DNA of 64,000 nucleotides from an uncultured Bacteroidales bacterium (GTDB lineage Bacteria; Bacteroidota; Bacteroidia; Bacteroidales; B18-G4): contig CAVWDP010000002.1 of the NCBI GenBank assembly GCA_963753835.1, forward strand, positions 99,495 to 163,494, written 5' to 3'. Made by a program: the position numbers and the translations under genes. Within the stretch, counting starts at the first letter, position 1, and every line of letters starts with the position of its first letter. The notes under the pieces were generated by a model that saw only the letters and a program-made list of their open reading frames with translations, was not told the origin of the DNA and searched no databases. Below, one piece after another: positions 23,490-59,223 of the stretch.

Positions 23490-23875
23490 TTGCACAAGGG
23501 TAAAATTCTAAACTCTAAGCCCTAAACTCTAAACAAACTTCAAATTACAAATTTCAATGCACCTCACCCCCAAACCCCCTCTCCTGAAGGCGAGGGGGCT
23601 TTATTATGTTGAGAATTGGATTTTGAAGTTTGGAGTTTGGGCTACCTGGCCTTAAGAATGAAATAATCATTTCCATTCTCCTGATGATTGCTGTCCTTAT
23701 CGCAATCTTTTCAGCTGCTTCCCGGCCCTTTATATCCACACCCTGCAGAAATGCGGGGTTTTTTTCATTGTGTTAAAGATATGTTAAAAACCAGTAAGCC
23801 AGCGTATTAAGAATTACTTTCACAGCGTCATGTCACGATTAAATTCTAAAAGGGATGAACTAAAACAAAAATAAG

Positions 23876-26362: not shown

Positions 26363-27061
26363 ATGAAGCAGGAAAATAGTGGCCCTGTTCGCAGCACCAA
26401 CACTTTTACTGATTTTAAGTACTATCTTTTTCACAAGCCACCTTTCAAGACATTGGTAGAACAGACTAATTCTGATGCCAGGGTTAGTCTGGGCAAAAGT
26501 ATCCTACAACGAACCGGTATAGATGTAGAAAGTTACAAGATGCTCAATCTTCACAGGGTAGGCATAGAAACTCCCGCCAGCTATGTATTTGATGAGTTGT
26601 TGGCATGGAGCGGTAACTCCATTTGTTGGCCTAACCATATTGCAAGGGTAGATTTGCAGGACAACAAACTGGAACAGATAAAAATATACCTTTTCGGGGT
26701 TACGAAACGATTTTTGGGTACAAACCTGTTTCACCTATTTGACTTGAGTGCCATACGCATACAAAAGGTTCCGGCAGACTCAGATTTTGATAATGCCAGG
26801 TATCTGCTTTATGAGTGCAAGGGAGGATACCCGATTGGTGTCTTTTCTATATACGTTAGGTCGTCTATTCCCGATAGGGGAGAAACAGAAATGTCGCAAC
26901 TTTTCATGATGGTGAGCTTTAACTTTTATGGTAAGAAAAGAAAAAGACGAACCCTCTTTAACCGGATATGGGAAAGAATCCATAACAGGGTAACATCCAA
27001 TGTTCTTTATCGTTTCAAGCGATTATGTGAATGGAAGTTCGAAAATTTTGTTAACGAATAG
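26363..27061 (+). CDS. Hypothetical protein
   Basis: 232-aa ORF with ordinary amino-acid composition. No motif recognised. Confidence 0.45.
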   Translation: MKQENSGPVRSTNTFTDFKYYLFHKPPFKTLVEQTNSDARVSLGKSILQRTGIDVESYKMLNLHRVGIETPASYVFDELLAWSGNSICWPNHIARVDLQDNKLEQIKIYLFGVTKRFLGTNLFHLFDLSAIRIQKVPADSDFDNARYLLYECKGGYPIGVFSIYVRSSIPDRGETEMSQLFMMVSFNFYGKKRKRRTLFNRIWERIHNRVTSNVLYRFKRLCEWKFENFVNE

Positions 27062-27192: not shown

Positions 27193-27266
27193 TCCTCTTT
27201 AGCTCAGTTGGTTAGAGCATCTGACTGTTAATCAGAGGGTCCTTGGTTCGAGTCCAAGAAGAGGAG
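27193..27266 (+). tRNA. tRNA-Asn (anticodon GTT)
   Basis: Cloverleaf read by hand: acceptor TCCTCTT/AAGAGGA, D-arm GCTC..GAGC, anticodon stem TCTGA/TCAGA with loop CTGTTAA, T-arm CTTGG-TTCGAGT-CCAAG, discriminator G. No encoded CCA. Confidence 0.9.
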
Positions 27267-27690
27267 CGGTAAAAAAGGGGCGCACGTTGTGCAGCCCCTT
27301 TTTTGATATGTGAAATCTGAACTCTGATATTTGAAGTTTGAAGTTTCTGCTCCGCCAGTTGAGTGCACCTGTCATCCTGCATCGCCCGCTGTAGCTTTAG
27401 CGAAAGCGGGAGAGTTGCGGAGCGAGCGTAGCAAGTGACGAGGGACCCCCATCAATTAAGCTCCAAGCCGTCAAAAGCCAAATTTCAATAAAACTCCAAA
27501 CTGTCAAGTTCCAAATTCATCCAACACTCAACACTCAACATCCAACACCTTTATGTATCAAGGCTTTCGGGAGCTGCAACTCTTCATTTAAAAAAATCGG
27601 TGATTTTGGGGGGAGTTGCAGCTTTTTTATGTACCGATCCCTCCCCTGTTTTTAGACCCCCAAACAATCGTTCCATTATTTGGTCCCCAA
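27267..27690 (+). repeat. Modular intergenic repeat, copy 1 (T-A-B-C-F plus extra hairpins)
   Basis: Terminator hairpin, then a GATAT/GAAGTTT tract, then CTGCTCCGCCAGTTGAGTGCACCT and GTCATCCTGCATCGCCCGCT..AGCGGG..GAGGGACCCCCATCA. An AAACTCCAAACTGTCAAG tract follows, then the GAGCTGCAACTC..GAGTTGCAGC hairpin. Confidence 0.85.
27271..27306 (+). terminator. Terminator hairpin after tRNA-Asn (T module of the repeat family)
   Basis: AAAAAA-GGGGCGCAC-GTT-GTGCAGCCCC-TTTTTTTT. Confidence 0.65.
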
Positions 27691-27710
27691 CCCATAGTTG
27701 ACTTCCCCTC

Positions 27711-27769
27711 CCACTTTTCGTATTTTTATAAAAATCAATAAACCGCGCCATAGCAGCGGCCGTTATCGG
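27711..27769 (+). repeat. Upstream module J (gene-oriented), copy in front of 27789 CDS
   Basis: CTTTTCGTATTTTTATAAAAATCAATAAACCGCGCCATAGCAGCGGCCGTTATCGG matches the reverse complement of the left part of 45151-45285. It ends 20 nt before the ATG. Confidence 0.65.
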
Positions 27770-27788
27770 TTAGTGCTAAAAATCTACT

Positions 27789-28769: not shown

Positions 28770-28973
28770 CAACCCAAACAATAAATAAAAACCATACGCC
28801 TCTTATTCAGACAGTTGTGCGTTTTTTTTAGAAATACCATTTTTTTCAGACCTTATGTAATATGTATTGAAAGTATTTTTATAAAGTTGAAGAACCTAGA
28901 CATAATAGAAGACAAAAGCAGTTATTGTATTAGATATAGTATTCCTCTGTTCTCTTATTATCTTTTAAGACCT

Positions 28974-29003
28974 GACCTCACAGGTTCAAGAACCTGTGAG
29001 GTC
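28974..29003. terminator. Perfect 11-bp hairpin (possible terminator)
   Basis: GACCTCACAGG-TTCAAGAA-CCTGTGAGGTC. The T-run is weak. It is followed by further GC hairpin modules up to 29190 (GCCATAGCTTCAGCG / CGCTAAAGCTATGGC inverted pair). Confidence 0.4.
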
Positions 29004-29192
29004 TCTTTGGCTGCAACTTCCGCCCCACCTTCGTCCCGAGTGCTCGGAACTCCGGCGGGTAAAAAAGAAACCACCTCCGCCAACCGCGTGTCGCCATAGC
29101 TTCAGCGGTGGCACAGGCTACGGCGGTTGTAAAGGGAGCAACAAAAAAGGGCCACCCCACCGTCGCTAAAGCTATGGCGGGCAAAGGCGAGT

Positions 29193-29495
29193 CCCTTTTT
29201 TGATACTCGATACTTGATACTTGATATTTGAAGTTTTCTGATCAGCCAGTTAAGTACTACCGGTCATCCTGCATCGCCCGCCGAAACCTTGGTGGAGGCG
29301 GGAGAGCAGCATCGCGAAGCGATGCAAAGGAAGGGACCTGTTGGCGGCTAGCACCTCCCTATCAAAAAGCACCCCTTCTATTAAACTCCAAACTGTCAAA
29401 CACCAAATTTCAAAAAAACTCCAAACTGTCAAATTGCAAATTCCAAACTAATCCAACACTATATTCCCCATCCATTATCCATAAATCATCATTCG
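29193..29495 (+). repeat. Modular intergenic repeat, copy 2 (A-B-C-E-F)
   Basis: CCCTTTTTT, then the GATACTCGATACTTGATACTTGATATTTGAAGTTT tract, then TCTGATCAGCCAGTTAAGTACTACCG and GTCATCCTGCATCGCCCGCCGAAACCTTGGTGGAGGCGGG. GCATCGCGAAGCGATGC, GGGACC, CTGTTGGCGG and the AAACTCC.. tract follow. Confidence 0.9.
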
Positions 29496-29616
29496 TAGTT
29501 TTTCTACGTTAGGCGGTAAAATCCCGTTGGTTTTAAAATCGATTGTTATTTAATTTTATACTGTTATAAATTGTTCCGGGTAAGCTTTTTGCTTTCGCAA
29601 GGATATAAAATTAAAT

Positions 29617-30948: not shown

Positions 30949-31035
30949 TATCAAATCTTTACACTTGCTCTGTCGCCACCATATTAATTTAGTTATTTAT
31001 TTCTGGTTTAAATATGACATAAGTATAGTGCGAGG

Positions 31036-31355
31036 CCCTTTTTTGATATCTGATACTCGATACTTGATACTTGATATTTGAAGTTTTCTGATCAGCCAGT
31101 TAAGTACTACCGGTCATCCTGCATCGCCCGCCGAAACCTTGGTGGAGGCGGGAGAGCCGCAGCGCGAAGCGATGCAAAGGAGGGAACTGTTGGCGGTTAG
31201 CACCTCCCTATCATAAAGCACCCCTTCACTAAACTCCAAACTGTCAAACTCCAAATTAATCCAACACTCACTTCGTCCGCCGAAGTTTTAACGAAGGCGG
31301 AACACCCAACACTTTCCCGCGAATGCGGGAAAAACGGTGGTTTATTTGGTCAAGG
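31036..31355 (+). repeat. Modular intergenic repeat, copy 3 (A-B-C-E-F-G)
   Basis: Near-identical to copy 2 through A-B-C-E. It then has hairpins TCCGCCGAAGTTTTAACGAAGGCGGA and TTCCCGCGAATGCGGGAA, followed by GGTGGTTTATTTGGTCA. Confidence 0.9.
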
Positions 31356-31501
31356 GGTGAAATCTTATTCAGTTTAACGTTTGGTGTAAGAAGAGTAGCC
31401 GAAAGCGGAAGTAAAAACTTTCAGTTTACTGCAAATTTTATGCGGGCTGCAATGTTCATATTTAATACAATCTCGGCTATTATTTTTATACTTTGTTGTG
31501 C

Positions 31502-32570
31502 TTAGTACTTGTTCAATTTTTTGTCCTTTTTGTAATTTTTTATCATTTTCCCAAAATCCTTGTCTTTCTTACGTTTTTCAGCAACAGTCGATTCAAAATG
31601 TTCTTTTTCCCGTTCCATTTTCAAGTAGTTTTCATAGGACGATTTATCTATTTCTCCACTTTCTACGCTTGCTATAACTGCACAGTCAATTTCTGTTGTA
31701 TGTGTGCAATCTTTAAATTTGCAATCTTTGGATAGTTCTACTATTGTTTCAAATGTAATTTCTAATCCATCTGTTGAATCTGCAATCCCAACTTCTCTCA
31801 TTCCAGGATTGTCAATTAAAATCCCTCCATTTTCGAGAACCAACAATTCACGGTGACTTGTAACGTGTCGTCCTTTGTTTGTACTTGTACTAATTGTGTT
31901 TGTTTTCATAAATTGTTTACCTGAAAGATTGTTCACAAGAGTTGATTTTCCTACTCCTGATGAACCTAACAAGCAGTAAGTTTTACCTTTTATGATACTT
32001 ATCTTTTAGTCTATCGATTCCTATTAGGGTTTCATTGCTTATAGTAATTACAGGTACTTGCTTAATTCTATCTTGAACATTAGCAATCAACTTTGTTAAT
32101 TCTCTATCTTCTATCAGGTCAATCTTGTTGAGAATGATAATTGGTTTTACGTTGGATGTATTGCAAATAGTCAGGTACCTTTCTATTCGGTTGATGTTAA
32201 AATCCCTGTCAACTGCTTGTACAATAAAAGCAAAGTCAATATTTGTTGCTATAATTTGTTTTTCGCCTTGTTTGCCAACTGCTTGTCTTTCAATGATGGT
32301 ATTTCTTGGAAAAATGGAATGAATAAGTACTTTATCTTCATCATATTCAGAAATTGCAACCCAGTCACCAACAGCAGGGAAATCAGACCTTTTATGTGCC
32401 GAAAATCTTAAATTTCCGATTATTTCAGCATCATATTCATTTTCGGTAGTTTTTACAACGTATCTTTCCTTGTGTTCGGAAATAACTCGTCCCACTCCAA
32501 ATGAATCAAGATTTTGGTCCTTTCGGTAATTTTCCAATTCTATATTATATCCTAAATCTTCAAGTGTCAT
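31502..32570 (-). pseudogene. rsgA: Ribosome small-subunit-dependent GTPase A, frame break in an A4 run
   Basis: ORF 31983..32570 (OB-fold N-terminus and circularly permuted G4 NKIDL) and ORF 31502..31972 (GSSGVGKST, DNPG, C-terminal Cys cluster CKFKDCTH..C). The frame carrying GKTYCLLGSSGVGKS is reached by one A fewer/more at 31988-31991. AT-rich. Confidence 0.8.
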
Positions 32571-32593: not shown

Positions 32594-33238
32594 AACTTGT
32601 TTATTGATTCACCTTTATTATCATTATATGTCTAAATTGGGGTTGTAATGGTAATGATATGTGCTATTATGTTTCAAAATCCTCTATTGGGGTTTTGACT
32701 TAATTAAACAGCTTATCAGTAAAGATAAAAAATATTGGTGCTGCAACTTCCACCAAAAAAGAGGAGCGGTAAAAAAGGGGCGCACGTTGTGCAGCCCCTT
32801 TTTTGATATCTGATATCTGATATTTGAAGTTTGAAGTTTCTGCTCCGCCAGTTGAGCGCACCTGTCATCCTGCATCGCCCGCTGTAGCTTTAGCGAAAGC
32901 GGGAGAGTTGCGGAGCGAGCGTAGCAAGTGACGAGGGACCCCCATCAGTTTTGCACCTCGCTATCATGCAGCACCTCTTCTATTAAACTCCAAACTGTCA
33001 AACACAAAATTTCAAAAAAATACCAAACTGTCAAACTCCAAATTCCAAATTAATCCATCACTATATTCCCCATCCATCATCCACTGTGTCCTCTGTAGCT
33101 ATCCGCGAGCGCAGAAGCTACTCAGCGGAGGCGCTAGCGAAAGAGGATAATTCATCATCCATAATTATTTCCGCGAATGCGGAAATCCCGCCCCGGTTGC
33201 CTGGGACCGGAATAAAATCGTTCCTTTATTTGGTCACG
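32594..33238 (+). repeat. Modular intergenic repeat, copy 4 (165-bp AT-rich leader, tRNA 3-prime-like fragment, T-A-B-C-E-F, extra multi-stem module, G)
   Basis: 32594-32870 and 32933-33062 are identical to 37751-38027 and 38048-38177. 32759-32935 is nearly identical to 27259-27455. Extra module TCCTCTGTAGCT..AGCTAC..AGAGGA at 33089-33147. Confidence 0.9.
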
Positions 33239-33371
33239 TTTTGAAATCTAATTCTGTTTTAACGGTCGAGGGTATGTGACGTAAGGGATTGCGGAGCAGT
33301 TTCCTGTCCGCTGATACAAAAGTTTGAGTGGGCTACAATCCTTGAAATAATTGCTATCACAGCTATTATTT

Positions 33372-34459
33372 TTATACATTGTTAGGTGGAGTTTTTTCTT
33401 CGTCTTGTGTATTTAATCTGTCGATTATATTATATTTCGCCTGTCTTTTCTTCCACCTATCCCTTGCATATTTTTGCATGTCAACTATGGTATCGGTTTC
33501 ATCAATTATTTCAAGACCTAGCAAAGTTTCAATAATATCTTCCATTGTTACAATTCCGTCAAAACCACCATATTCATCTACAATTAATGCAATATGTTCT
33601 TTTTTTTCCAATAGTTTTTCCCACAAAGCAAAAAGTTCTATACTATATGGAACAATAACTATCTCTCGTTTAATATCTTTCAGTTTTAATTCATGTTGGT
33701 CTTCGGCTAGTTTTTCAAAAACTTCCTGCCTAAAAACATATCCTGTTATGTTTTCTTCATTTTCTGAATATATAGGAATACGTGAAAATTTTAGATAATC
33801 TTTATTCTTAAAAAAATCTTTTAAGGATAATTTCTCATCGGCAACAGCAACAACAACTCTTGGGGTCATAATTTCTGCTACTTTCACATTTTTGAGCCGA
33901 AGTAAATTTTGAATTATTTTATGTTCATTATTTGAAAAAACACCTTCATCTGCTCCTATATTTGCTAATGCTGCAATTTCCTCTCGGCTAGTAGTTTGCT
34001 CTTGTCTGTTTTTTGAATAAGTTTCGTAATGACTGCTGACATTACAACCAATGGATAGGTAATAATTATCATACCTTGTATAATTCGAGAAGAAATCATG
34101 GCTAGATTTCGCCAATATCTGGCTCCAATTGTTTTTGGAATAATTTCGGTAATTACTAGAATTAAAATTGTTAAAATAGCTGATATAATTCCAAAAGAAG
34201 CTTCACCAAATACTTTAACTGCTTGTGCTCCAACTCCAGCGGCACCAACTGTATGTGCTACGGTATTTAATGATAAAATTGCAGATAAAGGCTTGTCAAT
34301 ATTGGTTTTTAAATCAACAAATGATTTTGCCCAGGTATTTCCTTCTTCATGCTTAACAATCAAGAAGGATTGTGGTGTTGAAAGAAGCACGGCTTCCATT
34401 ATAGAACAAAGAAATGAAACAACAAGAGCAAGAAATAAATAGAATAAAAGTAATATCAT
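33372..34459 (-). pseudogene. CNNM/CorC-HlyC family protein (DUF21 TM domain plus CBS pair), frame break in a 6-nt homopolymer
   Basis: ORF 33965..34459 (DUF21-like TM helices) and ORF 33372..34115 (SREEIAAL...IMTPR, CBS pair, DEYGG..GIVTMEDIIE). The frames join at the T6 run at 34009-34014. The last about 8 codons and the stop lie in sequence shared with the rsgA 3-prime flank. Confidence 0.75.
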
Positions 34460-34661
34460 GTATTTTCTTTCAAAATTACGACAGTATGAATTAATTTAGG
34501 ATGATGTCTTCGTTAAAATACCACCTAGCGGTTCTAATATGGGGCGTTGGGCATTTTGAAACACCTACCTATCAAACCGCAATATGTTTTATTAAATGTT
34601 CTCATTTTCAATTTTGCCAATCCGCCCAATGACCTATATTTATTGTTATCAACAGAATGTG

Positions 34662-35816
34662 CTATTTCTGTTGATTTAACCAAATTTCATTAGAGTATTC
34701 ATTGGAACCACCATCAAAATTTGAAATAAAAACATCATTAATCCCATCATTATTAAGATCTTTAATTATAGGACGCTGAAAAAGATTTTTGCTTCCGATT
34801 ATAGAATCACTCTCTGTAAAATTCCCATTTCCATCATTATACCAGATTCTGTTTGCTTCGCCTAAACTTGTAATAAATAGATCTAATGAGCCATCACCAT
34901 TTAAATCTCCTATCCCAATTCTTCCAAAAATAGCAGGAGATAGTTTTTGTTCACTATAAGTAAATATCCCTTTTCCATTGTTTAATAATATTTTCGAGGG
35001 AGTACTAAAATTACGGGTGCCATTTGTTAATATGATATCCAAATCGTTATCATTATCTATATCTCCGGATACAAAAGAACCATAAATTATTGTAGTGTCT
35101 TTCATAGTCCAATATTTCATAAAGTTCCCCCCATCATTAATTAGAGATTCGAAACCACTTCCTACTTGTCTGGAGAATATATCCATATCCCCATCATTAT
35201 CCACATCAAGAAGCAGTGGATTTTTAGGAATTGTAACGTCACTTTTGGTGAATTCTCCATTTCCATTATTCAAATACAAAATATTTGCTGCCGAATTGTA
35301 TTCTATTATGGCGTCAATATCTCCATCGGAATCCATATCAGCTAATTGTATTGCATTACCACTAAACTTTTCATCGCCAAGGTTTTGCTTGCTATCATAA
35401 AACTGCCCCTTACCGTTGTTAAAATAAATTTTGCTAGGGATTTCATTATATTTTTCTTCATTTTCGCTTTTATAACCCGCACATACAATAAATATATCAG
35501 GACTGCCATCACCATTTAAGTCATCAATACCAACACCATGACCCTGTTGAGTGAGTTTTTGACCGGAATCTGTAAAGTTACCATTCCCATCATTGAACAA
35601 TATTTGACTATGATTATATCCCATATTGGCGCACACGGCATCTAAATCCCCATCCATATCCAAATCCTCAAGTCCAATTTGATAGGTGCTTTTCTTATGT
35701 GAATATTGGTTGTTTTTTTTGAGATTAACAATGGTCTTTTGGGCATAAATACTATTCAAACAACTGCATGCCATAATAGAATAAATCAATAGATTTTTAA
35801 GTGAATTTACTACCAT
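34662..35816 (-). CDS. FG-GAP/VCBS repeat (CRTAC1/ASPIC-like) secreted protein
   Basis: 384 aa with at least 7 repeats carrying DxDxDGDxD calcium-binding loops (DLDMDGDLDAV, DDLNGDGSPDIF, ADMDSDGDIDAI, GDLNGDGSLDLF...). AT-rich. Confidence 0.8.
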   Translation of the reverse strand: MVVNSLKNLLIYSIMACSCLNSIYAQKTIVNLKKNNQYSHKKSTYQIGLEDLDMDGDLDAVCANMGYNHSQILFNDGNGNFTDSGQKLTQQGHGVGIDDLNGDGSPDIFIVCAGYKSENEEKYNEIPSKIYFNNGKGQFYDSKQNLGDEKFSGNAIQLADMDSDGDIDAIIEYNSAANILYLNNGNGEFTKSDVTIPKNPLLLDVDNDGDMDIFSRQVGSGFESLINDGGNFMKYWTMKDTTIIYGSFVSGDIDNDNDLDIILTNGTRNFSTPSKILLNNGKGIFTYSEQKLSPAIFGRIGIGDLNGDGSLDLFITSLGEANRIWYNDGNGNFTESDSIIGSKNLFQRPIIKDLNNDGINDVFISNFDGGSNEYSNEIWLNQQK

Positions 35817-35838
35817 GTTTATTTCCTTTTATTTTGTT

Positions 35839-35858
35839 GATAACGGATGGGGCTATGA
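35839..35858 (-). promoter_or_regulatory. CATAGC-N6-CCGTTATC motif upstream of FG-GAP gene
   Basis: The minus strand reads TCATAGCCCCATCCGTTATCAAC, 22 nt upstream of the ATG at 35816. Related to GCCATAGCAGCGGCCGTTATCGG (27747) and GCCATAGCAGCGGCCGTTGGC (revcomp of 45151). Confidence 0.4.
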
Positions 35859-36134
35859 AGCGTCCCGAGTCCTCGGGATGCGATATTAGCCTGTGTTATG
35901 TTTAGTATTTATTCTAAATTCCCTTTTAATCAAACTTCATTTTATTTATTTCAAATAAATAGGTAGTCTGTAAATTTACTCACTTATTCTTTTTACTACA
36001 GACGAATTCAATGTATTTTTATGGTTTTATATCAATCTCCAGCTGATATAATGCCGTAAGAAGAATGACAGGAAGGCCCCGATTGATTTAGACTGTGATT
36101 CCTGAAATGCTTTTAAGTCAACAATAAATGGGTT

Positions 36135-37119
36135 TTACCTGATTACAAACTGTGAGGTCAGTACACCATCATCAGTGTAGAATACAACTGTGTACACACC
36201 ACTTTTCAAGTCAGATGTATTTATCGTTACGTTAAAGTTGCTTATCTCAATAGCTTCGACTAGTTTTCCGGTGACATCGATTATCTCAATCCTGTTAACA
36301 TCAGATAATTCATTTATATTCAACTTGTCCGCTTGCGGGGTTCGGATAAATAACATATTCAGCCCTTGTTTTGGATTCAAAAATACCGGGAATACAGTAC
36401 ACCCCAGACATCATTCACTGTCATCCATGTTGTATCAATAACAGTTATCATGCGATTTCCACTAACAAGTTCTTCACCATTGTCCCAGCTGGGTTCATTG
36501 TTAATAATACGGTAATATTTATATTCATAATCACCTTGATATAAATACAGACCGTGGGTATAAATATAGTCATCGACTTCACCAAATGGAGCCATCTTGT
36601 ATTGGGGGATAGTACCTGGCATAGCCCAATTATTGGCCAGGCTTCCTGCAATATATAGAAATTCTATCGCCGGATTGAAACCCTCCACTTCCATCAAATC
36701 AATCCAAAAATATACTGCTACAGGTTTATCACTCCAGTAATCACTATAAATTGATTTCTTCCGTAAGGATGATGTCTACGGTTGGGGTCACCCTCCCATT
36801 CATCATTATCCCAACTTGCTTCGCCGTTGATAACACGAAAATATTTATACAAGATCTCCCCAGAATCCACTTCCACGCGTAAGTTCATAAACATTTAGGT
36901 CCAATCCGAGTATTAATTTATAGGTCGGATCATCGCCGGGTTTCTCCCAATCAGTAAATGTACCAGAGATATATACTTCATCTGTTGTCGGATTAAATTC
37001 TTCGGATTCACTCATGTCGACTTTAAAAGTGACTGTAAAATTAGTTTGTCCAAATGCAACAGATCCCAGTAAGCAAAACAGACAAAAGTGTAAAAATAGT
37101 TAACGTAGTATGTTTTCAT
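36135..37119 (-). pseudogene. Degraded T9SS cargo gene (tandem carbohydrate-binding-like domains plus CTD), multiple frame breaks/stops
   Basis: ATG at 37119 gives an N-terminal hydrophobic stretch. Fragments 36377..36697 (YEYKYYRIINNEPSWDNGE) and 36135..36380 (CTD ...LKSGVYTVVFYTDDGVLTSQFVIR) are in different frames. 36700-37100 has a second copy of the domain broken by stops. Confidence 0.65.
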
Positions 37120-37384
37120 AATGCATAGTTTTTACTCCATAAAGATAATCAAGAAAAATGCAAAATGTACCATAGTAAGTAATCAAATAATGAGACTATT
37201 TCGAACTATCCCATTAAACAGGGTTGTCAGGTAAATTCTTTTATTGAAATACGTTATGATTTGTGGTAACTTTTTAAACCAATCACAACAGTTTTTATGA
37301 TTGGAATATCTTACTGAATATCTATAAACTATTCTCCAGCCTGTGAATACATCCCAATTCTATTATGTAAATAGGCATATTAAA

Positions 37385-37531
37385 CATAACGTTTGGCGGC
37401 TATGCAGCGTGCGGCCATTTTCGGCCGCATTGCTAAAATTACGAAAATATCTGGCGCATGCGGTATGAGGAGCTGTTATGGAAGCGTAGGACCGCCTGCG
37501 GGCCATGCGCCAAGGTATTGGCGCAGAATTT
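37385..37531 (-). repeat. Upstream module J, copy (about 265 nt upstream of the degraded gene start at 37119)
   Basis: Shares AAAATTACGAAAATATCT, GTTATGGAAGCGTAGGACCGCC and GCGCCAAGGTATTGGCGCAGAATTT with 45151-45285. The left end CATAACGTTTGGCGGCTATGC carries the CATAGC..GTTAT motif. Confidence 0.7.
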
Positions 37532-37750
37532 GACCTCTCGCCCCCATGGGCGAAATGCCTCTCCGCAGACTTGAAATTGGCACAACATTTCGCCCTAAAT
37601 TCTGTGCCAATACCGGGTAGGATCAGCTTTGGGATTATTGGCTTGCACGATGGCACGATTGTGCGATATTCGATTTCCGAAGGAATCAAAAACCTGCTAC
37701 AATTATTTGCAAAGGAAGATTTGGAATGTTAGGGTGGGGCTATGTTCTAT

Positions 37751-38275
37751 AACTTGTTTATTGATTCACCTTTATTATCATTATATGTCTAAATTGGGGT
37801 TGTAATGGTAATGATATGTGCTATTATGTTTCAAAATCCTCTATTGGGGTTTTGACTTAATTAAACAGCTTATCAGTAAAGATAAAAAATATTGGTGCTG
37901 CAACTTCCACCAAAAAAGAGGAGCGGTAAAAAAGGGGCGCACGTTGTGCAGCCCCTTTTTTGATATCTGATATCTGATATTTGAAGTTTGAAGTTTCTGC
38001 TCCGCCAGTTGAGCGCACCTGTCATCCCGAACCCCGAGTACTCGGGGGAGGGACCCCCATCAGTTTTGCACCTCGCTATCATGCAGCACCTCTTCTATTA
38101 AACTCCAAACTGTCAAACACAAAATTTCAAAAAAATACCAAACTGTCAAACTCCAAATTCCAAATTAATCCATCACTCACTTCGTCCGCCGAAGTTTTAA
38201 CGAAGGCGGAACACCCAACACCTTTTTCCGCTATGGCGGGGAAAACCGGTGGTTTATTCGGTAAGGGCTGGGGGC
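37751..38275 (+). repeat. Modular intergenic repeat, copy 5 (leader, tRNA 3-prime-like fragment, T-A-B-short C-E-F-G)
   Basis: Perfect duplicate of copy 4, except that the 62-nt C insert is replaced by the 20-nt CGAACCCCGAGTACTCGGGG and the sequence diverges after TAATCCATCACT. Confidence 0.9.
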
Positions 38276-38355
38276 TTTATTCTGTTTAATGGTTTTGTGG
38301 ATACCAGATATAATTGGCTTTACGTATTGTTTGGTGCAGTTTATTTTCTTTCAAA

Positions 38356-38814
38356 TCAATTTCTTAATAATATGAAAGCATTCAATGATGTAGCAATCAT
38401 TAACCAAATGACATACGGGAGAATCAATATAGATTTTAATTTTAACTCTGGCCAATAATAGAATAGAAAGAATCCAACAAGTAGGGTTAGTCCTGCTATT
38501 ATGAAGAGCCCAGCTGAAACATTGTGGTAATAAAAGAAAGTTGGGTTCCATCCTACATTCAATATCCATTGAGCTGCATATAAACCAACCAGGAGTTTTT
38601 TGTTCTCAATGACTGGCCACGCATACGCCATGTAAATACCAAAAAGAATCATGATTGTAGTCCATGCAGCTCCAAAGACCCATCCTGGAGGAGTCCATGG
38701 AGCTTTAGCCAAACTTATATACCATTCGGACGGGACTCCTTTTCCTGTAAATACCCCCCCTATTGCAAGTGCACCAAAATTGAGTGCTAAGAATATGATA
38801 AGCCTATAAATCAT
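38356..38814 (-). CDS. tspO: TspO/MBR family tryptophan-rich sensory protein
   Basis: 152 aa with five TM helices and Trp-rich motifs (APWTPPGWVFGAAWTTIM, WNPTFF). Confidence 0.85.
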   Translation of the reverse strand: MIYRLIIFLALNFGALAIGGVFTGKGVPSEWYISLAKAPWTPPGWVFGAAWTTIMILFGIYMAYAWPVIENKKLLVGLYAAQWILNVGWNPTFFYYHNVSAGLFIIAGLTLLVGFFLFYYWPELKLKSILILPYVIWLMIATSLNAFILLRN

Positions 38815-39047: not shown

Positions 39048-39134
39048 TGAGTGTAGTGCTTAATTATATCTAATGTGTTTATATGTACCCCATTGGTAAC
39101 CATACATACCAATATAGGCTGGATAAAAACACGT

Positions 39135-39440
39135 TTATTAGTAAAGATATAAAATTTCTATTCTGCAACTTCCACCCCCAAAGGGGCTGCACAAGGTGCG
39201 CCCCTTTTTTGATATTTGAAATCTGATCCTTCGACTTCGCTCAGGACAGGTTATCTGATATTTGAAGTTTGAAGTTTCTGTTCCGCCAGTTAATTGCACT
39301 TGTCATCCCGATCCTGAGTACTCGGGAGAGGGACCTGCTGGCGTTTGCACCTCCCCATTAAAAAGCACCATTTCCCCGTCCCTTGCCCCTCGTACCCCGC
39401 ACCCCATCCATCATCCATAATTCATAATCCATAATTATTT
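39135..39440 (+). repeat. Modular intergenic repeat, copy 6 (T hairpin inverted, A with CCTTCGACTTCGCTCAGGACAGG insert, B, short C, E)
   Basis: CTGCAACTTCCACC is followed by GGGGCTGCACAAGGTGCGCCCC, which is the reverse complement of the copy 1 hairpin. Then TTTTTTGATATTTG..., GTCATCCCGATCCTGAGTACTCGGGAGAGGGACC and CTGCTGGCGTTTGCACCTCC. Confidence 0.85.
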
Positions 39441-39498: not shown

Positions 39499-40237
39499 CT
39501 ATTTTATTTGAAAAAATATTTTTTTAAACCTTTGAGGAAGTTCATCTTTTAGATGGACTATTTCATTTGTAAACGGATGTATAAATTTTAAAGAATAGGC
39601 ATGTAAATACAATCCTTTTCCGTTTAAAATTAAATTTTCAATTCCATATTCTTTATCTCCCAATATCGGATTTCCGATACGTGACAGATGTATGCGTAAC
39701 TGATGTCTTCTCCCGGTTTTAGGTTTTAATTTCACCAGGTTGAGTTTGCCGAATTTTTTTGAGGGAACGGTTTTGATTAGTGTATAATTCTGATCGTGAT
39801 TTCTTGCCGTCGATTGTTGAAATGATTTTTCCCCGATGTTCCATTTCACCAATAGTAATGGCATAATAGGTTTTCTTAATCTCATTGTCTTCAAACATTT
39901 TATTTAAAGCACGAATGCTACTCCTCGTTTTCCCAACCAATAAAATACCTGTGGTTGGATAATCTAATCGGTGAACAGCTTGTGGTGTTGTAGCATCAGG
40001 AAGATTACTTTGTTTGATGTTTTGAGCCAAGGCATTGGCAATGGTTTTAAAACTATTTCCGCTCACCAAAATACCTGCAGGTTTATGAATCACGGCTAAG
40101 TGATTGTCTTCAAATAATACTTCAAGTGGAAAGACCAGTTTTTTCTTAGGACTGACCTCTTCTGGAATGGATAAGCTAATGGTTTCACCACCATTTATAA
40201 AAGTAGCGGAAGTAGCAATAACATTATTAACCGTCAC
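39499..40237 (-). pseudogene. RluA-family pseudouridine synthase with S4-like N-terminus, frame break and no usable start codon
   Basis: ORF 39719..40237 (HRLDYPTTGILLVGKT) and ORF 39499..39894 (TGRRHQLRIHL) are in different frames, joining near 39800. The N-terminal S4-like frame is open to 40385 without ATG, GTG or TTG. Confidence 0.7.
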
Positions 40238-40432
40238 ATACTGTTTCTTTAATACTTTCTTTAAGGCTGATTTGGTTAAAGCGGCATTAAAAATACCTAC
40301 ACCATACTCTTGAAGTCGAATAGGAGTAGTTAGTTTTGGAACAATATGGGTTTCACTTGCGTTGATGACGTTTTTTCTATATATGCCAACTTGTTTAAAT
40401 GTGATTCACTCAAATATACAAAAGTTTAATTG

Positions 40433-40676
40433 GTCCTTTTTGAAATCTGAAATCTGATATTTGAAATTTGATATTTGAAGTTTTCTGCTCCGCTGGTTAA
40501 GATCTACCGGTCATCTTGCCTCGCCCGCCGAAACCTTGGTGAAGGCGGGAGAGCCGTAGAGCTTTTCCACCTTCGCTAACGCCTCCGCTGAGTAGCTTCA
40601 GCGCTCGCGGAAAGCTACGGTGGATGATAGATGCGGAGGAAGGACCTCCTGGCGATTCGCAGAGCATCAGTTTAAT
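40433..40676 (+). repeat. Modular intergenic repeat, copy 7 (A-B-C, inverted multi-stem module, E)
   Basis: GAAATCTGAAATCTGATATTTG..., CTGCTCCGCTGGTTAAGATCTACCG and GTCATCTTGCCTCGCCCGCCGAAACC. 40566-40624 is the reverse complement of the module at 33089-33147 (about 52/59 by eye). Confidence 0.85.
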
Positions 40677-40743
40677 GTACTTCCAGCGTATTGCAGAACC
40701 TTGGCAGAAAGTCCACCATTAGTATAATATCACAGGAATAATT

Positions 40744-42315
40744 CTATTCAAGAAATACTTTAGTAGGTGTGCCGGACCATGAGCGTCTCTGGAACATGGT
40801 CATCTCATAAGGCACTAAGCCCTCTTGAACTACCCTGTCCTGAAATTCCAGAATGTCATTGAAGTTGATCTCACAATAATGCCTGTGCCAGTCCTGTATC
40901 ATGCAAACTAACTGAAACAGGTAATTTTTGTTGCCAAAGTCTTCGTATTTGTTTTTAAGATCAGGATGCTCCCGCAGCATGCTGTTTGCCTTGGAGCCAG
41001 GAAAAGGGATCAGGGTTCCCCACTCAAACCTGTCAAAGTTGTCAAATTCTGTAAGTTTCTTTAGAAATCCAATTGTTCTTTCCAGGCTTTCTTTGCTTTC
41101 ACCCTGTACCCCGACTACAACACCAGCTATCACACCAATCCTGTATTTCTGCAACAACTTCATGGCTCTTAGATTATCCTCGATCTTTGCTCTTTTATTC
41201 ATGCTTTCCAGCATTTTAGGATCGCCTGATTCCATACCAACAAAGACACTGACACATCCAGACTCAGCAAGTAAGCTGGCAGTTTCCTCATCTATGTTTT
41301 CGGCATCAACATAATTGGTGTAAGGGATATTTAATCGCTTTGGTTTTGCCGCACAGAAAGCCTTGAACCACTCTTTGTCTCCTACAAGGTTATCAGACGG
41401 ATCCCAGATGAAATCTGCCTGGTATTTCTCGACCAGGGATGAAATCTCATCCCAGACCAGCTTAGGCTTCCTAAGCCGCAGATCATAATAAGGAACTGAG
41501 CAGAATACACAGCCGCCTTCTTCCTGTGAGCGCCACATGCATCCTTTCTGGGAATAAATGTTCATGGGTCTCTTAAATGGATCACAGATCGGATATGCAG
41601 GATCTTTACTGTTCTTAAAATACACTTCCATATCCAGGAGATCCCTGTCTGGTGGTGGAAGCTTGTCAAGACATGGCAGCTTTACAGGATTTTCCCTGAT
41701 CTCATGATTGTCGCGATAAACAAGATTCTCTATTGAACCTAATGGTTCATCGGCAACATACTTTGAAAAAGCTATCTCGCCATCATATCTGATCACAGCA
41801 TCTACAAAGTCATAGTATTTTAAGATCTCCTTTGCAAGTGGAGTGGCAGCAGCTCCTCCCAGGATTACCCTTGCACCTTTTTGCTTTGCAATTTCAGCCA
41901 CTTTAATAGCATGATCATAACCACCGGCTGTTGTTGAAATACCCACAACATCAGCATCAAGCTTGTCAATCACCTGATCTAGGGTGAGAACATTGTTTCC
42001 ATCAAGAATCTCTACCTCAACACCAGGATTATTCTGCCTGATGTAAGTCCCTACAGATACAATGCCCAGCGGCTGAGGCCATCGTGCAAATTTGGCTATA
42101 TATTTATCTTGTTTCTCAGGCTGATGCGGAATCAGACCATTAAGCATAGTGGCAAACATGTCACTGGATACAGCCCTCTCAGCCAGCCAGAAGATAAATT
42201 CCCGGGCATAGCGAGCAAAAGGCTGAGGCAATGTTGCAAATTTGGTAGTAATCGTATCTGGCCTTCTGGGAGGAGGAAGAACCAACTGGACCTTTTCTAT
42301 ATTCTTGTATCTCAT
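40744..42315 (-). CDS. B12-binding-domain radical SAM protein (class B), orphan
   Basis: 523 aa with a Rossmann-like cobalamin-binding region (VVGISTTAGGYDHAIKVAEIAK..ILGG) followed by a radical SAM core. The Cys triad is spaced GCMWRSQEEGGCVFC (CX9CX2C rather than CX3CX2C). Host-like composition. Confidence 0.7.
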   Translation of the reverse strand: MRYKNIEKVQLVLPPPRRPDTITTKFATLPQPFARYAREFIFWLAERAVSSDMFATMLNGLIPHQPEKQDKYIAKFARWPQPLGIVSVGTYIRQNNPGVEVEILDGNNVLTLDQVIDKLDADVVGISTTAGGYDHAIKVAEIAKQKGARVILGGAAATPLAKEILKYYDFVDAVIRYDGEIAFSKYVADEPLGSIENLVYRDNHEIRENPVKLPCLDKLPPPDRDLLDMEVYFKNSKDPAYPICDPFKRPMNIYSQKGCMWRSQEEGGCVFCSVPYYDLRLRKPKLVWDEISSLVEKYQADFIWDPSDNLVGDKEWFKAFCAAKPKRLNIPYTNYVDAENIDEETASLLAESGCVSVFVGMESGDPKMLESMNKRAKIEDNLRAMKLLQKYRIGVIAGVVVGVQGESKESLERTIGFLKKLTEFDNFDRFEWGTLIPFPGSKANSMLREHPDLKNKYEDFGNKNYLFQLVCMIQDWHRHYCEINFNDILEFQDRVVQEGLVPYEMTMFQRRSWSGTPTKVFLE

Positions 42316-42348: not shown

Positions 42349-42655
42349 TTTTTTTTGATATCTGATATTTGATATCTGATATTTGAAGTCAGAAGTTTTC
42401 TGATCCGCCAGTTAAGTACTACCGGTCATCCTGCATCGCCCGCCGAAACCTTGGTGGAGGCGGGAGAGCAGCAGCGCGAAGCGATGCAAAGGAGGGACCC
42501 CCATCAATTAAACTCCAAACTGTCAAACACCAAATTTCAAACAAATACCATACTGTCAAATTGAAAATTCCAAATTAATCCAACACCCAACACTCAACAC
42601 TTTTTCCGCATTCGCGGAAAAACCGCCCTGGCGATTTGCACCCAAGCATCAAAGT
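42349..42655 (+). repeat. Modular intergenic repeat, copy 8 (A-B-C-F-G with inverted small hairpin)
   Basis: Fills the whole gap between the PIG-L stop and the radical SAM start. The hairpin TTCCGCATTCGCGGAA (42604-42619) is the inverted form of TTCCCGCGAATGCGGGAA. Confidence 0.9.
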
Positions 42656-42683
42656 ACAAATATTTTTTGACAGTGGTTTGGTA

Positions 42684-45150: not shown

Positions 45151-45285
45151 GCCAACGGCCGCTGCTATGGCACGTGATCTTATTGGTTTGTATAAAATTA
45201 CGAAAATATCTTGTGCGCTATAGCTTGTGTTATAGAAGCGTAGGCCCGCCAGGGTGATGCGGCCAAGGTATTGGAGCAGAATTTT
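45151..45285 (-). repeat. Upstream module J, copy directly in front of the 45123 start
   Basis: The minus strand reads ...AGATATTTTCGTAATTTTATACAAACCAATAAGATCACGTGCCATAGCAGCGGCCGTTGGC, then 27 nt, then ATG. Confidence 0.7.
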
Positions 45286-45467: not shown

Positions 45468-45589
45468 GCCGCCAGCTTTGTTTATCATGCAGTGTTACTT
45501 CTACCGGTCATCCTGCATCGCCCGCCGAAACCTTGGTGGAGGCGGGAGAGCAGCAGCGCGAAGCGATGCAAAGGAAGTACCCCCATCAT
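45468..45589 (+). repeat. Modular intergenic repeat, copy 10 (partial: B-like, C)
   Basis: GCCGCCAG...CTACCG-GTCATCCTGCATCGCCCGCCGAAACCTTGGTGGAGGCGGGAGAGCAGCAGCGCGAAGCGATGCAAAGGAAGTACCCCCATCA. The terminal CATCA overlaps the NUDIX stop codon. Confidence 0.85.
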
Positions 45590-46185
45590 TTAATATAATA
45601 ATCAAATGCAATTTTAGTCCAGGTTTCCATCCCTTCATAAAATTCAGCTAGATCAGCTTTATCAATCCAGTCTGCTGTCATTTTATCCGTTTCATTAATA
45701 TCAACATCTTTATTTGATATATGGATGATAAATAATAGCCCTATATGAACGCGGCCAACCGGAATTGTATCATCATTAATAAAGCCAATAAATGCTATAT
45801 CCTCTATTAAACATGTATTTAATAGATTGACCTCCTCAAACAACTCTCTTTTTAATTCATTGATCAGATACTTTTCTTTTGATTCCTTTGAGTTGCCAGG
45901 GTTCATATGCCCACCTATTCCTAAAGAGAATTTATTGTGTAACCTTTTTTCTGTTTGCCCGGATGTTCTATTAAATAAGTAAAATGATTCTTGATTGGAA
46001 ATAACTGCATACGGAATAATTTGCTTAAAGGAAGGGTCTTCTTCCAATTCACTCCTTTTGCGGAACAGACCATTTTGAATAACCACTTTCAACACATCAC
46101 TATTTTCTTTTATTAACCCTTTCTCTTTATAGGTTAATAATTTCCATAGCTCATCTGTTGGTAAAGCAAATACTAATTCTTCCAA
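45586..46185 (-). CDS. NUDIX-fold hydrolase (YmaB-like)
   Basis: 199 aa with NUDIX box GIGGHMNPG...ELKRELFEEVNL. Recalled similarity to YmaB-type proteins linked to dNTP metabolism. 12 nt downstream of the ThyA-like gene. Confidence 0.65.
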   Translation of the reverse strand: MEELVFALPTDELWKLLTYKEKGLIKENSDVLKVVIQNGLFRKRSELEEDPSFKQIIPYAVISNQESFYLFNRTSGQTEKRLHNKFSLGIGGHMNPGNSKESKEKYLINELKRELFEEVNLLNTCLIEDIAFIGFINDDTIPVGRVHIGLLFIIHISNKDVDINETDKMTADWIDKADLAEFYEGMETWTKIAFDYYIK

Positions 46186-46197
46186 AATACTTGTTGG

Positions 46198-47289
46198 TTA
46201 AACAGCCATACTCCTTCTGATTGGAGGATGAGGGTCATAATCTTCTACAATAAAGTCATCAATAGTTAGCTGATCAAAAGGTTTTTTTGCAATTTGTAAT
46301 TTAGGTAAAGGCCTGGGTTCTCTTGATAATTGTTCAAGAATTGCGGTTACATGATCATATTTTTCTTCATTGCCGTCACCGGGAGCATTTTTATTAATCC
46401 ATTCAACTACTTCTAAATATCCTTCTCTTGCAGAAACATTCCGTATTCTTTTTTGTAAATTCTTGAAATTATCTCCGTGCCATTGGGTTCTCTTTCCAAT
46501 ACCGGCATAAAAATGCGAATCACCGAAGGTGTGGATAAATGTTTTCGGGACCATCCCTGCTTCTTGAGCAATTATCTGGGTAAGAGCAGCATAACTGGCT
46601 ATATTAAAAGGAACACCTAAAAACTGATCACAACTTCTCTGGTAAAGTTGTAATTCTAATTCGCCTTGTTCATTAGCAGTGGCTTGATAAAGAACATGAC
46701 AAGGCGGTAAGGACATGTTAGGGGTGTCTCCGGGATTCCATGAATCAACAATGTGTTTTTTTCCAGTAGGTTTCTTTTTTAAACCATTTATTAGTTTCTC
46801 TAGTTGATCAATTTCAACAAAGCTCCCTTTGTCGTGATCAAAATATTCCCATCTTCTCCATTGTTTCCCATAAATCGGACCAGCATCGCCCCATCTTTCT
46901 GCAAAATCAGGATCTTCTTTTATTCTCTGACCATATTCTTTCATTGCTTTGTCCCAATCAGGTGAATACTTTACAAGACTTTCAGGAAAAAGTCCTTCTT
47001 TTTGCATTCCGGAAAGATTGCCCTGAAAAGCATCAGGCCTCCAGATAGGGCAGTTATAGTCTTCAAGGTATTTAATATTTGTATCTCCCCTTAAGAACCA
47101 TATTGTTTCATGAAACATAGATTTTGTAGCCATCTTTTTAGTAGTCAATAATGGATACCCTTCTCTAAGATCATATTCGTTTTGATACCCGAATAAAGAG
47201 ATAATCCCCGAACCTTTGCTTCCTCCTTTAAAATTTGAACGATCAGAAGTTAAAATTGCTTTTGAATGATCTAAATATTGTTGCGCCAT
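46198..47289 (-). CDS. Thymidylate synthase (ThyA) family protein, long divergent form
   Basis: 363 aa with LPPCH catalytic Cys, LYQRSCDQFLGVPFNIASYA and LSREPRPLPKL. It has an L. casei-type insert after IW and a second insert of roughly 45-50 aa between HFY and LSREP. The positions of E. coli R21, R126 and R127 are not Arg (by eye). Confidence 0.75.
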   Translation of the reverse strand: MAQQYLDHSKAILTSDRSNFKGGSKGSGIISLFGYQNEYDLREGYPLLTTKKMATKSMFHETIWFLRGDTNIKYLEDYNCPIWRPDAFQGNLSGMQKEGLFPESLVKYSPDWDKAMKEYGQRIKEDPDFAERWGDAGPIYGKQWRRWEYFDHDKGSFVEIDQLEKLINGLKKKPTGKKHIVDSWNPGDTPNMSLPPCHVLYQATANEQGELELQLYQRSCDQFLGVPFNIASYAALTQIIAQEAGMVPKTFIHTFGDSHFYAGIGKRTQWHGDNFKNLQKRIRNVSAREGYLEVVEWINKNAPGDGNEEKYDHVTAILEQLSREPRPLPKLQIAKKPFDQLTIDDFIVEDYDPHPPIRRSMAV

Positions 47290-47488: not shown

Positions 47489-47510
47489 CTCCTTCTGAGG
47501 TGAAAGCATA

Positions 47511-59196: not shown

Positions 59197-59223
59197 CTGA
59201 TGGATCAAATTAGTGATCCGGAT

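Follow-up and report, generated by a model that had tools for sequence, protein, structure and literature searches.

Mosaic intergenic repeats beside a tRNA-Asn gene in a Bacteroidales genome, with a perfect repeat pair that differs in its hairpin slot

We analysed a 64-kb stretch of DNA from an uncultured Bacteroidales bacterium (contig CAVWDP010000002.1; this stretch is the window below), together with a handful of short related metagenome contigs that are designated by L-numbers. The window holds at least 13 related composite intergenic units between 27.25 and 51.5 kb, all in the positive strand (window-versus-window BLAST), of which the first directly follows a tRNA-Asn gene. Two units, copies 4 and 5, share long perfect direct repeats and differ between them in a short hairpin-bearing slot. 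We give a probability of about 0.55 to the reading that the units constitute a lineage-specific mosaic intergenic repeat family in which copies 4 and 5 are the product of a recent copying of a whole unit followed by patchwise recombination.

The perfect repeat pair and the unit array

An earlier note, made by eye from the letters of this DNA, had described a perfect direct repeat of 277 plus 130 bp with a hairpin swap in between. Direct reading, a repeat finder and the window-versus-window BLAST all returned both blocks as exact: 32594-32870 is identical to 37751-38027 (277 nt, 100%) and 32933-33062 to 38048-38177 (130 nt, 100%), and perfect matches this long cannot reasonably be put down to chance. 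Between the blocks, copy 4 carries 62 nt (TGCATCGCCCGCTGTAGC...GCAAGTGAC) and copy 5 an unrelated 20-nt palindrome (CGAACCCCGAGTACTCGGGG); reading and alignment agreed that both fillings are flanked exactly by GTCATCC and GAGGGACC. The parts of the pair are as follows.

32594-32870, + strand: left perfect block of copy 4, 277 nt, from the left-end motif AACTTGTTTA to the 5' half of the scaffold
32594-32705, + strand: AT-rich stretch of copies 4 and 5 only, within the left block of copy 4
32740-32767, + strand: motif GCTGCAACTTCCACCAAAAAAGAGGAGC in copy 4
32771-32805, + strand: terminator hairpin in copy 4
32805-32839, + strand: heptamer repeats in copy 4
32840-32870, + strand: 5' half of the scaffold in copy 4
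32871-32932, + strand: slot filling of copy 4, 62 nt of GC-rich nested hairpins, identical at 62/62 positions to the filling of copy 1
32933-33062, + strand: right perfect block of copy 4, 130 nt, 3' half of the scaffold plus AAACTCC/AAACTGTC repeats
33063-33383, + strand: tail of copy 4, unlike the tail of copy 5, with the right-end motif TTATACATTGTT at the corC stop
37751-38027, + strand: left perfect block of copy 5, 277 nt, identical to 32594-32870
38028-38047, + strand: slot filling of copy 5, 20-nt palindrome with 16 matches to the 19-nt filling of copy 6, the changes being stem-preserving
38048-38177, + strand: right perfect block of copy 5, 130 nt, identical to 32933-33062
38178-38355, + strand: tail of copy 5, 84-90% like the tail of copy 3, ending at the TspO stop
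38356-38814, - strand: TspO, adjoining the tail of copy 5

Copies 4 and 5 were the most alike pair of the at least 13 units, the remaining pairs being 75-96% identical. Nucleotides 32594-32705 of the block had no match elsewhere in the window or in any related locus, and therefore unique DNA appears to have been copied, as opposed to a mere homogenisation of existing repeats. The identity of 100% and these 112 duplicated nucleotides speak for the very recent duplication or recombination that the note had proposed. The sequence left of 37751 showed no likeness to anything left of 32594, so the left joint, which coincides with the left-end motif of the family, would be new. The right edge of the identity (33062/38177) falls at a module border, past which the tail of copy 4 starts like that of copy 2 and the tail of copy 5 like that of copy 3. 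The first ~165 nt of the copy 4 block are the DNA upstream of the split rsgA gene, which starts at 32570. Left of copy 5 (37120-37750) no credible gene start was found, only a 108-aa open reading frame (ORF) with a TTG start and no family match, so that, as had been noted, no gene follows where the rsgA-upstream stretch occurs a second time. The AT-rich stretch is in its proper place beside rsgA in copy 4 and adjoins nothing in copy 5, which makes copy 4 the likelier source of the two.

The units were located at about 27.3, 29.2, 31.0, 32.8, 38.0, 39.25, 40.4, 42.35, 43.7, 45.5, 47.4, 49.8 and 51.4 kb, with a spacing of 1.2-5.2 kb, and occupy almost every intergenic gap of this 24-kb stretch. 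The genes between them lie on either strand (two in the positive strand at 27.8-31 kb, the others in the negative strand). Eight diagnostic words were all restricted to the positive strand and to 27-52 kb, and the pattern GATATTTGAAGT..CTGNTNNGCCAGT was present 11 times in the positive strand and 0 times in the negative, with 0 expected from shuffled sequences. A similar arrangement was seen in L019, a 12-kb metagenome contig with seven co-oriented copies of the 27-28-nt motif described below, all in its positive strand, between ten small accessory genes on the opposite strand; no recombinase was found in L019. The tRNA gene and the units other than copies 4 and 5 are listed here.

27193-27267, + strand: tRNA-Asn (GTT), called by ARAGORN and Rfam
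27251-27770, + strand: copy 1, with tRNA 3' end, terminator hairpin, heptamers, scaffold, 62-nt filling, AAACTCC and tail modules
28968-29530, + strand: copy 2, with the conserved hairpin, the CTGCAACTTCC motif, extra inserted hairpins and a 60-nt filling
31030-31497, + strand: copy 3, 96% identical to copy 2 over 209 nt, its tail ~90% identical to that of copy 5
39127-39440, + strand: copy 6, its terminator hairpin the reverse complement of that in copies 1, 4 and 5, with a short filling
40387-40700, + strand: copy 7, with a 122-nt filling made of two known hairpin modules
42351-42660, + strand: copy 8, without the motif-plus-terminator module found at the orthologous site in L011
43699-44010, + strand: copy 9, terminator hairpin deleted and the A-run joined to the T-run
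45480-45593, + strand: partial copy 10, with a rearranged scaffold and a filling identical at 60/60 positions to that of copy 8
47396-47492, + strand: partial copy 11, with 52 nt 100% identical to copy 6
49802-50060, + strand: copy 12, with an 89-nt filling
51396-51482, + strand: truncated copy 13, between two convergent genes, the right end of the array

Side-by-side reading of all copies, in the window and in its relatives, gave a unit of 0.4-0.8 kb composed of short modules in a fixed order, any of which may be absent. The motif at the left end, (C)AACTTGTTTA, is separated by 19-50 nt from the start codon of a leftward gene, and an AT-rich stretch comes after it. Then there is a 27-28-nt motif with the consensus GCTGCAACTTCCGGCAAGAAGGGGAGC (in copies 4 and 5, GCTGCAACTTCCACCAAAAAAGAGGAGC), in which the final 13 nt are a copy of the tRNA-Asn 3' end. 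The GC hairpin next to it has an A-run before and a T-run after, is thus terminator-like on both strands, and scores as terminator-like; it is followed by the heptamer repeats GATATCT and GAAGTTT. The scaffold has the form CTGnTCCGCCAGTTRAG..ACCGGTCATCC [slot] GARGGACC, with the slot at the tip of a short stem (TCCY/RGGA), and its right half is either CTGGCGG..GCACCTC.. or CCCATCA...; pairing between CCGCCAG and CTGGCGG of the two halves is possible in some copies, though not in 1, 4, 5 and 8. To the right of the scaffold there are AAACTCC/AAACTGTC repeats and further small GC hairpins, up to the right-end motif TTATACWTTGTT, which adjoins the next gene. The low-complexity arms on the left and the right form an imperfect inverted repeat, and the unit ends proper (AACTTGTTTA... 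and ...TTATACATTGTT) are not inverted repeats; nor was a duplication seen at 37750/37751 or at the right ends. A MITE, or miniature inverted-repeat transposable element, was discarded on account of this lack of terminal inverted repeats and target duplication. Outside the array, at 20050-20146 and 23490-23640, terminator hairpins with low-complexity inverted arms (AAACTCTAAAC... / ...TTTGAAGTTTGGAGTTT) are of the same style as the unit arms, and this style seems to be a general habit of the intergenic DNA of the genome.

Slot fillings, module reassortment and the tRNA-Asn end

At least 10 different fillings of 19-122 nt were found between GTCATCC and GARGGAYC in the window and the related metagenome contigs, and one relative, L021, has an empty slot. 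Copies may agree at only ~60-80% in their left 100 nt and still carry the same filling at 98-100% identity. Copies 8 and 10 have fillings that are identical at 60/60 positions, and their left flanks align with 61 matches, 25 mismatches and 28 gaps. In copies 1 and 4 the fillings are identical at 62/62 positions and the left 100 nt contain 3 mismatches and 14 gaps; in copies 2 and 8 the fillings agree at 59/60. Copies 4 and 5 give the converse case. Because near-identical fillings sit in scaffolds only 60-80% alike, fillings and flanks are evidently uncoupled both ways and the modules reassort. The suggestion of the note that the hairpins are exchangeable units in a fixed scaffold thus stands as regards exchange, in both directions, and has to be amended as regards the scaffold, which is mosaic too, its right half being of two kinds and some modules being optional. 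Among distinct types, the first filling base paired with the R of GARGGA as C:G in 4, T:A in 6, T:G in 5 and C:A in 0 cases (p about 0.09), which is suggestive of a closing pair, though the independent cases are few.

Reassortment extends beyond the slot, as hairpin module families of 12-62 nt occur in varied combinations and some of them inverted. The tail of copy 4 contains a 62-nt module (33089-33150) that is the reverse complement, at 87%, of 40563-40624 in the slot of copy 7, and a third copy of this hairpin module, also inverted, lies at 11312-11356 of L019. Similarly, the copy 6 hairpin at 39188-39209 (GGGGCTGCACAAGGTGCGCCCC) is, with one change, the reverse complement of the hairpin GGGGCGCACGTTGTGCAGCCCC of copies 1, 4 and 5 (27277-27298, 32777-32798 and 37934-37955), as if the terminator palindrome of copy 6 had been flipped in place. 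Upstream of the radical-SAM gene, a motif-plus-terminator module is present in L011 and absent at the same site of the window. A perfect patch of 52 nt, comprising the hairpin CCTTCGACTTCGCTCAGGACAGG and heptamer repeats, is common to copy 6 (39221-39272) and copy 11 (47399-47450); a hairpin related to CCTTCGACTTCGCTCAGGACAGG was also seen outside the array, at 9575-9600. Several fillings of 24-27 nt hardly fold (dG of -1 to -4 kcal/mol) and look like deletion derivatives of longer ones.

The array begins inside the 3' end of tRNA-Asn, which copy 1 follows directly. Homology of copies 4 and 5 and of the relatives L011, L017 and L019 to copy 1 starts at 27254/27255, that is, 12-13 nt before the end of the tRNA, and runs through the terminator; the BLAST starts, within the window and against relatives, range over 27254-27259. 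The tRNA sequence CAAGAAGAGGAGC recurs with one or two changes in copies 4 and 5 and in L011, L017, L018 and L019, and complete units hold 12-13 of the last 13 tRNA nucleotides, always joined to the upstream word GCTGCAACTTCCGG. The resulting 27-28-nt motif hardly varies, in contrast to the changing hairpin that follows it. It makes an imperfect 11-6-10 dyad, GCTGCAACTTC / CGGCAA / GAAGGGGAGC, with 8 symmetric positions, and is missing from about half of the units in the window. ARAGORN and Rfam recognised no RNA family or tRNA-like gene in the units beyond the real tRNA. In L023 and L024 (78% and 84% protein identity) a conserved gene precedes tRNA-Asn, and immediately after the tRNA come a terminator and a scaffold that has a filling of its own; for this reason the tRNA-adjacent position of the unit is taken as ancestral.

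The gene at 26363-27061, which adjoins tRNA-Asn in close relatives, encodes a 232-aa protein without a Pfam family and with more than 1000 homologues in Bacteroidota. It was considered as a hidden recombinase and discarded by the fold of its model, a START/Bet v1 helix-grip (mean predicted local distance difference test score, pLDDT, 82.6). Likewise, L026 was tried as an empty site and set aside because the orientation of the flanking genes and the junction differ from those of the window: at 1380-4463 of L026 (70-77% identity) the homologues of the 232-aa gene and of the 774-aa gene that flank the array are adjacent, on the same strand and 58 bp apart, with no tRNA.

The enclosed block and its genomic setting

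The DNA between and beside copies 4 and 5 has the following content, in which T9SS is the type IX secretion system.

31502-32570, - strand: rsgA, in two ORFs (195 and 156 aa), Pfam RsgA_GTPase on both
33372-34459, - strand: CorC/CNNM-CBS gene in two overlapping ORFs, Pfam CNNM and CBS, in the enclosed block
34662-35816, - strand: FG-GAP repeat protein of 384 aa (Pfam), in the enclosed block
36135-37119, - strand: degraded T9SS cargo gene with several frame changes, Por_Secre_tail (Pfam), sorting domain at 36135-36380
37120-37750, no strand: non-coding stretch left of copy 5, in which 37434-37531 is 80% like 45193-45284

The segment 45193-45284 is found upstream of a different T9SS gene. Direct repeats allow RecA recombination, which can delete or amplify the DNA that they enclose. 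The 5.2-kb block (a corC-like gene, an FG-GAP gene and a dead T9SS gene) is bracketed by perfect direct repeats of 277 and 130 nt and is therefore expected to be unstable; its deletion or amplification between copies 4 and 5 is plausible.

Four genes are split across two frames, namely rsgA (near an A-run at ~31975), the corC-like gene (34100-34115), an rluA-like gene (39720-39890) and an extracytoplasmic function (ECF) sigma factor gene (22890), the last of which is unbroken in the relative L023. These changes could be residual long-read error, real decay or both. The T9SS cargo genes at 47561-49636 and 36135-37119 contain numerous frame changes that break them (no fewer than 8 over 2.1 kb in the first), and a signal peptide and a C-terminal sorting domain are still recognisable in both. 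ORFs of 500-970 aa elsewhere in the window are unbroken, and because the damage to these two genes far exceeds that of neighbouring long ORFs, they are probably genuine pseudogenes within the array. Sorting domains of the T9SS are frequent in the window, and homologues of window proteins are named as Bacteroidales or Bacteroidota. Two window proteins have 100% identical counterparts on record, and for TspO no exact counterpart is recorded.

The GC content inside the array, 0.33-0.42, is about 5 points lower than on both sides (0.41-0.47). Gene order in the 8 kb left of the tRNA is common to L023 and L024, and to the right of 51.5 kb it is as in L027, which has a copy of the unit in the same relative orientation just past the conserved block; the array interior has no gene order in common with the relatives. 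For the radical-SAM gene (40744-42315), for instance, relatives of 96, 92, 88 and 80% identity were found, and its neighbours are different in every one of them, even at 96% nucleotide identity. Housekeeping-type genes (rsgA and the rluA-like gene) are also present inside the array, and short-read contigs of the lineage (L011, L012, L020, L022 and L023) often end inside units. Searches with Pfam, NCBIfam and PHROGs found no integrase, transposase or RAYT in the ORFs of at least 120 aa of the window or in L019, and no remnants of integration or transfer genes appeared in the window scans. Since the unit DNA had no match among viral contigs, phages and plasmids, a phage or plasmid origin was discarded. 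In Rfam 15 only the tRNA reached the gathering score, with nothing credible at E <= 5 over 27-52 kb. A replication terminus, considered for a turn of the GC skew near 31 kb, was dropped as well, the skew being weak and tracking gene orientation.

Some further features were recorded. At 45586-47289, thyA is unusually long (363 aa against a Pfam model of 266 positions) and lies beside a 199-aa ORF that matches phrog_8902 and phage NUDIX/deoxynucleotide-synthesis genes at 30-42% identity; the two may be a nucleotide-metabolism pair that was acquired. L010, L011, L012 and L017 have, downstream of the radical-SAM gene, a conserved segment of ~330 nt that is non-coding and is absent at the same place in the window; it carries a promoter-like TTTCGTATATTTA toward the 3' end of the radical-SAM gene and is common to all 96% relatives. 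A palindromic element of ~75 nt, GTCATTTCGA...TCGAAATGAC, occurs outside the array at 4476-4560 and 59126-59200; downstream of a PKD/T9SS gene it also stands at the matching site of the 85% relative L027 (4586-4655). The ten WG-containing beta repeats at 8357-9547, with a strict DNA periodicity of 102 bp, are those of an ordinary repeat protein unrelated to the array.

Explanations, and comparison with known systems

In the mosaic-repeat reading, a founding copy would have stood directly after tRNA-Asn, and the other copies would have spread from it through the variable 24-kb stretch. Very recently, one whole unit, beginning at its defined left end, would have been copied into the intergenic space upstream of TspO, taking along the 112 nt of otherwise unique DNA and leaving a new left joint at the unit's own left end. 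Slot and tail would then have been swapped patchwise with other members of the family, or kept from a pre-existing unit, the swap proceeding by templated patch replacement, i.e., gene conversion or template switching. The co-oriented units could further serve as substrates for the gain, loss and shuffling of gene blocks, the 5.2-kb block included. Several points weigh against this reading. No enzyme or mechanism was observed. As nothing left of 37751 is homologous to anything left of 32594, plain gene conversion would not make the left joint and at least two kinds of event would be needed; a single gene-conversion tract is excluded for the same reason. The high conservation of the fillings could come from selection instead of recent exchange. 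The clustering beside tRNA-Asn and the absence elsewhere rest on a small sample, 64 kb and a few short contigs. Finally, the frame-changed genes suggest a long-read assembly with residual errors, and polishing with multi-mapped reads could have homogenised the repeat copies artificially.

Taken to its end, this last point would make the pair an assembly or polishing artefact, with copies collapsed, mis-joined or homogenised, or the 5.2-kb block misplaced. Such an artefact would fit the many frame-shifted genes, some of them at homopolymers (rsgA, and the ECF sigma gene as compared with L023), and the ending of the lineage's short-read contigs in repeats. We hold it very unlikely, since copies 4 and 5 keep different fillings and tails and are each bordered left and right by unique DNA, the unit architecture recurs, with other fillings, in related contigs of independent samples, and long ORFs of 972, 774, 731 and 523 aa are unbroken. 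A structured RNA, in which the scaffold would be a non-coding RNA or cis-regulatory element with a variable expansion stem and the fillings would be under RNA-structure selection, would account for the better folding of both copies than of shuffled sequences (z = -3.8 and -3.0), for a slot-closing pair that is never C opposite A, and for the outer stem CCGCCAG/CTGGCGG, kept with a few wobble or compensatory changes in some copies. Against it, there was no Rfam match even at E <= 5, folding energy had no strand bias (the positive strand was favoured in 5 of 16), the outer stem is absent from copies 1, 4, 5 and 8, covariation is weak (p about 0.09), and the 13 copies are antisense to most flanking genes without an obvious RNA role; we regard it as highly improbable. 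The equally good folding on both strands is what DNA palindromes would show, and the fillings might be REP- or MITE-like hairpins moved by a transposase encoded elsewhere (for example a RAYT or one of IS200/IS605 type, working on hairpins in single-stranded DNA), with the slot as a preferred target and the swap as excision plus insertion, not recombination between copies. Discrete GC-rich nested palindromes conserved at 98-100% across diverged scaffolds, the same modules in both orientations and at different places of the unit, and the empty slot of L021 are consistent with this. Uniform orientation would fit too, as replication-coupled single-strand transposition belongs to the biology of IS200/IS605. 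Mobile hairpins nevertheless appear improbable: no Y1 or other transposase was detected in the window with Pfam, NCBIfam and PHROGs, no target duplication or conserved cleavage word is present at the slot edges, no remnant of a replaced hairpin was seen, the barely folding fillings of 24-27 nt look like deletion derivatives, and viral, phage and plasmid matches are lacking.

The tRNA-derived module brings in a further alternative, a site-specific cassette platform of accretion or integron-like type, in which a tyrosine recombinase with its gene elsewhere would use the 27-28-nt motif as crossover site. Unit-bearing, attP-like blocks would integrate serially at the 3' end of tRNA-Asn and stay integrase-less, and copies 1, 4 and 5 would be the att junctions of the two latest insertions of 5.2-5.5 kb. 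The start of the array exactly in the tRNA 3' end, the 12-13 of 13 tRNA nucleotides plus GCTGCAACTTCCGG in complete units, the near-invariance of a motif with an imperfect 11-6-10 dyad next to a changing hairpin, and the common orientation of all sites agree with this proposal; so do a variable, low-GC content of accessory-type genes or pseudogenes and the spacing of copies 1, 4 and 5, which have the same terminator, by 5500 and 5157 nt. There are also precedents in the tandem accretion of decayed elements at tRNA 3' ends (PMC5704250) and in Bacteroidales elements with 13-bp att repeats and without their own integrase (PMC3091885). The platform is possible but still unlikely, because no integrase or recombinase was found in the 64 kb or in L019, the tRNA-adjacent protein being of START/Bet v1 type; about half of the window units lack the motif; homology between copies extends 200-400 nt past the core; the breakpoints between window and relatives around the radical-SAM gene are tight against the gene and not at the motif; and housekeeping-type genes (rsgA, rluA-like) lie inside the array. 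In addition, simple accretion would have copies 1 and 4 resemble each other in their right halves more than copies 4 and 5 do; the reverse is observed, which excludes that simple form for the three copies.

If the units are recombination substrates, they would explain why gene order downstream of tRNA-Asn differs among genomes whose genes as such are 96% identical, why pseudogenes build up in the array, and why short-read assemblies of this lineage break at almost every gene in such regions. The slot, with different hairpins in identical flanks and identical hairpins in diverged flanks, offers a clean system for studying palindrome exchange. More tentatively, and we think improbably, the array could be an undescribed Bacteroidales gene-cassette platform with entry at the tRNA-Asn 3' end and crossover at the dyad motif, where blocks of 1-5 kb are captured, stockpiled, shuffled and left to decay. 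This would be a functional analogue of the integron, having a tRNA att site and giant mosaic 'attC-like' units, and a true crossover at the tRNA-derived motif would make it a new kind of chromosomal gene-cassette array. Integrons are rarely reported in the phylum Bacteroidota.

Among known systems, integrons and clusters of attC sites lacking integron-integrases (CALINs) have co-oriented structured sites with a variable terminal hairpin (PMC4889954, PMC11551772). The array resembles CALINs in its co-oriented repeats between one to few mostly accessory genes and in a content that differs between close relatives. It differs in that there is no paired R''/R' box and no IntI, the units are 4-8 times larger, some genes are opposite in orientation, and housekeeping-type genes are inside. 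An attC site is a 57-141-nt imperfect palindrome with a 5' RYYYAAC paired to a 3' GTTRRRY; in units of 400-800 nt we found a GTTRRRY-like heptamer (GTTAAGY/GTTGAGY) 5' of the slot without a RYYYAAC partner, and the wrong box order together with the lack of IntI in the window and L019 excludes attC identity. Tandem accretion of decayed cis-mobilizable elements (CIMEs) has been described at tRNA 3' ends (PMC5704250). As in CIMEs, direct repeats of the tRNA 3' end bound integrase-less blocks with atypical GC and variable presence; unlike CIMEs, the blocks span just 1-5 kb, the junctions number 13, similarity runs 200-400 nt beyond the core, and remnants of integration or transfer genes are lacking. 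The pdif modules of Acinetobacter are bounded by a 28-bp-type site used by the host recombinase (PMC6449649), and Xer-dependent microvirus proviruses are known in Bacteroidales (PMC3091885). Sites of the Xer/dif type are 28 bp long, with two recombinase arms of ~11 bp around a 6-bp spacer; the array motif of 27-28 nt, an imperfect 11-6-10 dyad, is similar in size. However, pdif sites alternate in orientation and are on plasmids, whereas the array motifs are co-oriented and chromosomal, and the motif has no evident likeness to the general dif consensus.

Nearest to the units are the mosaic intergenic repeats BIME (REP palindromes clustered with conserved linker motifs, of Enterobacteria and Pseudomonas), the neisserial NIME and the pneumococcal BOX and SPRITE. 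BIMEs are extragenic mosaics of GC-rich imperfect palindromes and conserved motifs linked to terminators and recombination, NIMEs have been implicated in recombination near variable genes, and SPRITE resembles a terminator (PMC3184786). The units are like BIMEs in being extragenic mosaics of short GC-rich imperfect palindromes and other motifs whose combinations vary by locus; they differ from them in being longer (0.4-0.8 kb), of fixed order, co-oriented, clustered by a tRNA and headed by a copy of the tRNA 3' end, with no RAYT seen in the window. With NIME, BOX and SPRITE they share the modular intergenic make-up, the number and kind of sub-units varying between copies. They have no sequence relation to NIME, which is bounded by 20-bp inverted repeats, or to BOX, which has the form A-B(n)-C, and neither of these is tRNA-derived or forms a one-direction array between single genes. 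As the unit fails the defining tests of each, we file it with the mosaic intergenic repeats as its closest known kinds, as a variant outside any named family.

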